Shown here: positions 6,554-6,630 of the stretch, piece after piece
How positions within the stretch are numbered: position 1 is the first letter of the stretch
Layout: the number at the start of each line of letters is the position of its first letter
UHGV virus genome: UHGV-1332412
Direction: 5' to 3' (one strand)
Length of the DNA: 10,167 bases
Origin: a virus
Translations under genes and position numbers: made by a program
The notes under the pieces: model-generated
The model's input: the letters and a program-made list of their open reading frames with translations, nothing else
Database searches by the model: none
What the model was told of the DNA's origin: nothing

Positions 6554-6630
6554 TGGACCGCCACCGGGGACTCGAACCTCGCACACTCAACTTAAAGGGT
6601 TGACGCTCTTTCCTGATGAGCTAGTGGCGG
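6554..6630 (-). tRNA. tRNA-like gene with non-canonical anticodon loop (CCUUUAA; nominal anticodon UUU/Lys but C at position 33)
   Basis: 77 nt including CCA, with only 1-2 nt between it and the flanking tRNAs. Perfect 7-bp acceptor stem CCGCCAC/GTGGCGG, D-stem GCTC/GAGC, perfect 5-bp anticodon stem TCAAC/GTTGA, T-loop TTCGAGT. Identity is uncertain because of C33 and one A:C mispair in the T-stem. Confidence 0.6.

Follow-up and report, generated by a model that had tools for sequence, protein, structure and literature searches.

A phage late-region tRNA of the argN family with anticodon UUU and C33: a candidate Lys-decoding back-up tRNA

The virus genome stretch analysed here (10,167 nucleotides, hereafter the window) carries an array of four tRNA genes, one of which, referred to as 'Lys', combines the anticodon UUU with a C at position 33. 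In all likelihood, 'Lys' is a genuine gene of the argN family that has undergone an alloacceptor shift from Arg to Lys. In shifts of this kind, also termed recruitment or remolding, a tRNA gains the anticodon of another isotype by mutation while its ancestral body stays. As judged from scans of E. coli genomes, phages and gut metagenomes, the UUU/C33 allele is a distinct, fixed and widespread lineage, and not a recent or private mutation. Taken as a whole, the best explanation is that of an argN-derived, Lys-decoding and plausibly nuclease-insensitive back-up tRNA, a reading whose chances are judged to fall just short of even.

The tRNA array and its late-region setting

The array and the features surrounding it, in order of transcription, are:

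6902..7597, minus strand: late antiterminator Q (Pfam Phage_antiter_Q)
6815..6838, minus strand: G+C-rich hairpin with a T run, in the tR' position between Q/pR' and the array (from sequence and position)
6717..6745, minus strand: putative sigma-70-type promoter, TTGCAA-17-TATTAT, whose end is 10 nt before the first tRNA gene (consensus match only)
6632..6707, minus strand: ileZ-type tRNA-Ile2, anticodon CAU, first gene of the array (ARAGORN, as tRNA-Met/Ile2(cat), and Rfam; named tRNA-Ile by PGAP in identical arrays)
6554..6630, minus strand: 'Lys'(UUU) tRNA, assigned to the argN family (ARAGORN; Rfam, 44.4 bits; argN alignment)
6592..6598, minus strand: anticodon loop of 'Lys', CCUUUAA (direct reading)
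6476..6551, minus strand: tRNA-Thr(UGU) (ARAGORN, tgt; 100% identity to E. coli K-12 thrU)
6398..6472, minus strand: tRNA-Gly(UCC) (ARAGORN, tcc; 100% identity to E. coli K-12 glyT)
6175-6193: terminator-like hairpin between the array and the holin gene
5890..6105, minus strand: holin S of the P21 type, first late gene downstream of the array (gene annotation of the window)

Transcription passes from the RusA and DUF968 genes to Q, a pR'-like promoter match, the tR'-like hairpin, the second promoter-like match and the array, and then to the terminator-like hairpin, the P21-type holin, DUF1327, lysozyme, Rz, Nu1 and terminase gpA. On this annotation the layout is the standard lambdoid late arrangement, with the array in the predicted Q-dependent late transcript. 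The same slot in Stx phages is occupied by ileZ-argN-argO, followed by stx. As the second promoter-like match lies past the tR'-like hairpin, the array might also be transcribed without Q, for example in a lysogen.

The region varies among related prophages. In one with an identical array (L001), three hypothetical genes on the opposite strand lie between Q and the tRNAs (7125-8673) and look like a moron cassette; in the window, Q directly abuts the tRNA leader without this three-gene insert. From Nu1 to Rz (3210-4480) the window has short ORFs only; in L001, the equivalent part contains genes for a Rha-family regulator and a small hypothetical protein. Matches to the Rfam sRNA STnc100 occur downstream of the array or stx region in L002 (792-1003, 158.5 bits) and L125 (2439-2611, 100.8 bits), with no match at the gathering score in the window.

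The four genes are arranged in the order Ile2(CAU)-'Lys'(UUU)-Thr(UGU)-Gly(UCC), with spacers of 1, 2 and 3 nt, and 'Lys' is thus held between canonical tRNAs at the 1-2 nt distances given in the first-pass annotation. The Thr and Gly genes are host-derived copies, because they are 100% identical to K-12 thrU and glyT, which tyrU separates in the host. The K-12 operon reads thrU-tyrU-glyT-thrT, and in the window (6398-6551) Thr and Gly are joined by the 3-nt spacer; the pair looks like a phage-captured fragment of the host operon from which tyrU has been removed. Three of the four tRNAs contain an A:C mispair, as hand folding had indicated: A27:C43 in Ile2, A51:C63 in 'Lys' and A52:C62 in Thr, the Gly gene having a U13:U22 mismatch instead. 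Since the array Thr gene is identical to thrU, its A52:C62 is a native trait of the host gene, and U13:U22 is native to the host glyT too. Copies of glyT in 15 of 92 prophage arrays from IMG/VR carry a paired change in the acceptor stem (C6 to U with G to A, positions 6 and 66), which suggests that structure constrains the evolution of host tRNA copies after their capture.

The 'Lys' gene itself is 77 nt long, lies on the minus strand, which the first-pass annotation did not specify, and encodes its CCA end. Its anticodon arm reads UCAAC-CCUUUAA-GUUGA, with C32 at window base 6598, C33 at 6597, U34-U36 at 6596-6594, A37 at 6593 and A38 at 6592. The C33 and nominal UUU anticodon noted in the first pass were confirmed by direct reading, ARAGORN and Rfam, and 'Lys' thereby lacks the U33 of a standard tRNA (base 6597). 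All pairs of the acceptor and anticodon stems are Watson-Crick, again in agreement with the initial description. The existence of another fold, with U at position 33 or a standard anticodon, was ruled out, as ARAGORN, which calls tRNA-Lys(ttt) at 6554-6630 with no U33 fold, and the Rfam covariance model both give the 7-nt CCUUUAA loop. The minimum-free-energy fold of 'Lys' is not the cloverleaf, which is isoenergetic with it; the same applies to host thrU and lysT, and the comparison therefore does not discriminate. Further traits include C1:G72, U73 and A20, while the A51:C63 mismatch of the T stem (window bases 6579 and 6567) and a U15/G48 combination are, like C33, atypical. Against Rfam RF00005, 'Lys' scores 44.4 bits over the full model (1-71), above the gathering score of 29 and the lowest of the array, its three neighbours scoring 64.9-73.8 bits.

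Descent from argN and distribution of the C33 form

The first-pass annotation had proposed a mutated argN-like tRNA as one identity for this gene, and asked for an alignment to phage and host genes. This identifies 'Lys' as an argN homologue with the substitutions U33C, C35U and G36U, and finds no particular similarity of its body to host lysT. 'Lys' is identical to argN of the Stx2a phage F349 (Stx2a_F349) at 65 of 77 positions (84%), and both genes sit 1 nt past ileZ, some prophage arrays even reading ileZ-'Lys'-argO. Shared with argN of Stx and lambdoid phages are C1:G72, U73, A20, the D loop and the T arm, together with, in the Stx2 allele, the A51:C63 mismatch and an equally low Rfam score. 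The two differ in the loop, which in F349 argN is CUUCGAA around the anticodon UCG, such that 'Lys' has kept A20 and lost C35; in pairs 30:40, 27:43 and 7:66, which in 'Lys' are A:U, U:A and C:G; in the variable loop, GUGUG in 'Lys'; and in their neighbours, as 'Lys' usually precedes copies of thrU and glyT rather than argO and stx. The low score of 'Lys' is a trait of the family (C1:G72, U73, T-stem mismatch) and is not due to C33, because the U33-bearing Stx2 argN scores 43.0 bits against 44.4 bits for 'Lys'; C33 as the source of the low tRNA score was thus ruled out.

Nine positions separate the UUU from the UCG forms (7, 30, 33, 35, 36, 40, 43, 44 and 47), and none of these changes opens a helix. 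Three pairs changed on both sides. Two of them, 7:66 (U:A to C:G, with U:G intermediates) and 30:40 (G:C to A:U), divide the UUU from the UCG forms; in the third, 27:43, the C:G of UCG forms, in some of them U:G, became U:A in the UUU forms. Standard pairs make up 96.6% of pair cells in 27 distinct family sequences, and this pairing was abolished in a control in which the partner columns of these sequences were slid. In the proposed course of events, the Arg anticodon UCG would have given way to UUU, which matches the Lys codons AAA/AAG, and U33 to C along with it, the cloverleaf being held by compensatory stem changes, though these could be older than the anticodon switch. An Arg-to-Thr alloacceptor shift in E. 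coli was reportedly described by Saks et al. in 1998. Like such cases, 'Lys' appears to have taken a foreign anticodon on an ancestral body, but it differs from them in having two anticodon substitutions plus U33C and in residing in a phage array, and no intermediate, either a UUU form with U33 or a C33 form with a base other than U at 35, was found in IMG/VR or the metagenomes.

The UUU/C33 gene is present in 798 of 5426 complete E. coli genomes (~15%), in 279 of them as exact copies, and 601 of the 5426 contain the full four-gene array. The exact allele also occurs in the isolated phages vB_EcoM-606R7 and vB_EcoS-689R5, and is labelled tRNA-Lys by PGAP in sampled RefSeq records. Inducible phages are among the carriers of the UUU/C33 gene. 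This bears on two points raised at the outset: the mutated argN-like identity is upheld by slot and 84% identity, but the mutation is neither recent nor private; and the sequence is, as had been allowed for, a common isotype in databases, but not a well-scored one. In a scan of IMG/VR with the anticodon arm left free, ~55 copies of argN of the UCG type and 38 of the UUU type were recovered, and all 38 of the latter have C33; the loop is CCUUUAA in 36 of them, C32U occurs in one, and another has a stem change. The six UUU-form alleles sampled from E. coli also all have C33. In scans with the loop fixed, >120 contigs of IMG/VR and 37 from metagenomes contained the C33 form. When this arm was searched with U33 instead, IMG/VR gave a single match, an unrelated tRNA-Arg(CCU) of a tRNA-rich phage, and 241 million metagenome records gave none; the IMG/VR scan returned no C33 form with a base other than U at 35. 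Among one representative genome per species, the exact T arm and 3' half of the acceptor stem had matches in E. coli and Shigella flexneri and in no other species. A search of the literature on argN/ileZ, lambdoid tRNA-Lys and PPompW found no description of this tRNA.

Charging, decoding and a possible anti-nuclease role

Recognition by ArgRS is determined by A20 and C35, and that by LysRS mainly by U35, U34 and U36, with some contribution from A73. As C35 has been lost, ArgRS should reject 'Lys'. The tRNA presents U34-U35-U36, and charging by LysRS would be expected, with U73 (G73 in one rare sub-lineage) in the place of A73 as a handicap. C33 is found in many eukaryotic initiator tRNAs. It also occurs naturally in an elongator, yeast tRNA-Leu(GAG), which is nearly as functional as its U33 revertant (PMC13492127) and resembles 'Lys' in having C for the near-universal U33, but is eukaryotic; no precedent for a bacterial or phage tRNA-Lys with C33 was found in the literature searched. 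Bacterial t6A37 requires the context 36-UAA-38 and is reported to be independent of U33 (PMC13276492), and this context is present in 'Lys' (U36-A37-A38). C33 alone is therefore not evidence of inactivity, given that the yeast C33 tRNA works and t6A37 does not depend on U33. 'Lys' would be co-transcribed with the array, processed and used to decode Lys codons, and the chances that it is a functional Lys decoder appear evenly balanced.

The classical literature places the cut made by the nuclease PrrC in tRNA-Lys 5' of U34, and this placing is used here. A cut 5' of the wobble U is given in PMC3025547, while PMC12409363 instead puts it between U35 and U36. Cleavage of tRNA-Lys by AriB, of the PARIS system, depends on U39, A41 and U16 (PMC12409363). 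Phage tRNAs can counter both: the tRNA-Lys of T5 is AriB-resistant and rescues infection (PMC11464382), and a phage tRNA-Lys saves T1 and T7 from PrrC170 (PMC11555353). The UUU anticodon of 'Lys' is that of a host tRNA attacked by PrrC and PARIS AriB (PMC3025547, PMC11464382, PMC12409363), and recent work makes this tRNA a preferred target of anti-phage nucleases. With the E. coli lysT-family tRNA-Lys(UUU), 'Lys' shares UUU, C32, A37, A38 and the 36-UAA-38 context; it differs in having C33, U73, C1:G72, C16 and G39-U40-U41 where the host tRNA has U33, A73, G1:C72, U16 and U39-C40-A41. Every reported AriB determinant thus differs between the two, and C33 lies immediately 5' of the PrrC scissile bond.

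The most probable purpose of 'Lys', and one that fits better than codon supply, would be to act as a phage-supplied tRNA-Lys(UUU) with a non-host body, by which late translation could be sustained once nucleases cut the host's sole Lys isoacceptor. The closest parallel is the tRNA-Lys(UUU) of T5 (PMC11464382, PMC12409363), also a phage UUU tRNA that differs from the host at C16 and 39-41 and is accompanied by Thr(UGU), as in this array; the PrrC170-rescuing tRNA-Lys of the T5-like phage SP15 (PMC11555353) is grouped with it as a phage UUU-anticodon tRNA. The T5 tRNA, however, has a Lys-type body (G1:C72, A73, U33) and comes from a virulent phage, whereas 'Lys' has an Arg-type body (U73, C33), belongs to a temperate lambdoid phage and is accompanied by a host-identical Thr gene, and any resistance or rescue by it is putative. 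Since the T5 tRNA-Lys evades the nucleases yet keeps U33, C33 is not needed for evasion. Against a counter-defence role it may further be said that these positions would set an Arg-type body of any kind apart from tRNA-Lys anyway, and that the array Thr(UGU), being host-identical, is presumably cleavable. Such a role for 'Lys' is possible, though doubtful. The neighbouring gene encodes Thr(UGU), the second prime target of AriB, and a bolder proposal is that the late operon of lambdoid temperate phages of E. coli contains a dedicated counter-defence module, with a re-anticodoned Lys(UUU), C33 selected to block a PrrC-type cut, an anticodon stem and D loop that escape AriB, and an extra Thr(UGU) paired with it; this is rather unlikely. 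In terms of its sequence features, 'Lys' belongs with the phage late-region tRNAs, the alloacceptor-shifted tRNAs and the candidate anti-nuclease tRNAs.

Decay, constraint and competing explanations

Many copies of the 'Lys' gene differ from the exact allele. Judged by 40 of the 798 E. coli matches, taken at even intervals, roughly 40-55% of genomic copies have no tRNA annotation, and the unannotated copies fetched contain a deletion of T12 in the D stem, U8C together with C4U and C11U, or further changes. The T12-deletion allele is found in the ileZ-'Lys'-argO arrays of O111/O145-type STEC and in PPompW prophages. The C4U/U8C/C11U haplotype, carried for example by L126 (YD786) and L127, accounts for ~20% of IMG/VR copies and, by extrapolation from the spread sample, for roughly 160 E. 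coli genomes; its presence in phage Evi is deduced from the level of identity (96.1%). Two of its changes keep G:U pairing, and U8C removes a near-universal tertiary nucleotide. Alleles with either lesion lie beyond the Rfam threshold of E = 0.01 and receive no tRNA call from PGAP, and from these sequences loss of the gene seems to be tolerated. In 92 ungapped arrays, the numbers of variable sites were 8 for Ile2, 13 for 'Lys', 15 for Thr and 10 for Gly, a comparison of low power in which the search pattern had fixed 19 nt of 'Lys'; quicker decay of 'Lys' than of its neighbours is unsupported by these numbers, weak as the test is. Stem polymorphisms of 'Lys' are mostly C-to-U changes that retain a G:U pair, and in one sub-lineage C63 has become U, mending A51:C63 to A:U. 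The exact allele, to judge by these patterns, is not an obviously dying gene, and the earlier suggestion of a decaying pseudo-tRNA does not hold for it, as it scores like argN and is no more polymorphic than its neighbours, although other alleles of the same gene do bear D-arm lesions (the T12 deletion and U8C).

A further route to UUU is seen in a rare type of array (L140, also L144, L158, L162 and L187; E. coli H91-H96), in which a copy of thrU has acquired G35U and A26G. This copy has a canonical CUUUUAA loop and A73, and is called tRNA-Lys by PGAP, and the argN-derived 'Lys' adjoining it has C4U, U8C, C11U, C63U, which mends A51:C63, and U73G. The array is found in 6 of 5426 E. coli genomes, and was set aside as a weighty second route to UUU, being real but rare and probably of one lineage.

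The lesions speak for the view that 'Lys' is a neutral passenger or pseudo-tRNA, namely an argN copy that lost its Arg identity through loop mutations and persists only because it is wedged among the useful ileZ, thrU and glyT genes in an often recombining late cassette. Given the extra D-arm lesions in many copies, this is a serious rival, if on balance an unlikely one. The atypical C33, U73 and A51:C63, the lowest score of the array, the failure of PGAP and Rfam to call the lesioned copies, and the fact that Lys codons are not rare, leaving no obvious need for the tRNA, would all be in keeping with it. It is harder to reconcile with a score equal to that of the accepted argN, with nine lineage changes that break no helix and include three compensatory pairs, with polymorphism no higher than in the thrU and glyT copies of the same arrays, with stem polymorphisms that mostly retain G:U or, in one sub-lineage, mend the mismatch, and with the presence of the exact allele in isolated phages. 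A need for the tRNA could instead lie in plain codon supply, in which the array, unconnected with defence systems, adds to the tRNA pool for codons that late genes use in excess and 'Lys' serves AAG/AAA. Use per 1000 codons in phage genes, from the window and a prophage with an identical array, is 12-13 for ACA, 10-15 for GGA, 6-8 for AUA and 16-21 for AAG, higher than the E. coli K-12 averages of ~7, ~8, ~4.5 and ~10.5, respectively, and Ile2, Thr(UGU) and Gly(UCC) all read minor codons. AAA, however, is a major codon, and K-12 has six tRNA-Lys(UUU) genes, five of them seen in its gene list and the sixth presumably lysV; for this purpose a host-identical copy of lysT would be superior to a remodelled Arg body that has C33 and U73, and the fixation of C33 is left unexplained. 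Codon supply is accordingly improbable as the explanation of 'Lys'.

Two explanations place 'Lys' outside ordinary Lys decoding. As a decoy, an uncleavable UUU mimic would titrate a tRNA-Lys nuclease or another anticodon-binding factor outside translation; competition by over-expressed viral tRNAs was raised as a possibility by the authors of PMC12409363, C33 lies at the PrrC scissile bond (PMC3025547), and the weak LysRS feature U73 would be less important. The encoded CCA end and the intact acceptor and T arms nevertheless resemble those of a translational tRNA, and the stoichiometry against abundant host tRNA-Lys would be poor, which makes a decoy very improbable. Altered decoding is barely credible, whether through a shifted anticodon U35-U36-A37 (UAA), through the reading of quadruplets or through an influence on the -1 frameshift of tail G/GT at A-AAG. 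C33 does remove the canonical U-turn nucleotide, and the G/GT junction of a related prophage depends on tRNA-Lys slippage, but the loop is a normal 7 nt with the standard 36-UAA-38 context, the phage uses the standard code in long open reading frames, and no data tie 'Lys' to the shift site; the decoding change beyond Lys that was floated in the first pass accordingly finds no support. In the prophage concerned (L218, 12056-12075), whose array is identical, CCG GAA AAG TCC TGA forms the end of the tail chaperone gene G, and T lies in the -1 frame; the frameshift would use slippage of tRNA-Lys at A-AAG in place of the G GGA AAG heptamer of lambda. A link of tRNA-Gly(UCC) together with tRNA-Lys to a lambda-type G/GT frameshift was thus discarded, the site being GAA AAG and open to Lys slippage only.

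Why phages carry tRNAs is an old question, and protection from nucleases is an answer demonstrated to date in large virulent phages such as T5 and its relatives. The tRNA described here is small, defined and very common in prophages, and in it an Arg tRNA has apparently been switched to the anticodon of the single Lys isoacceptor, itself attacked by at least two E. coli defence nucleases. There is also a consequence for annotation, as the exact allele is labelled tRNA-Lys in the sampled RefSeq records, roughly 40-55% of the sampled copies bear no label, and none is tied to argN. If the bolder proposal of a counter-defence module with a selected C33 is true, viral tRNA anti-defence would extend from large virulent phages to prophages, and the natural occurrence of C33 in an elongator tRNA of bacterial type would for the first time have an explanation in terms of function.
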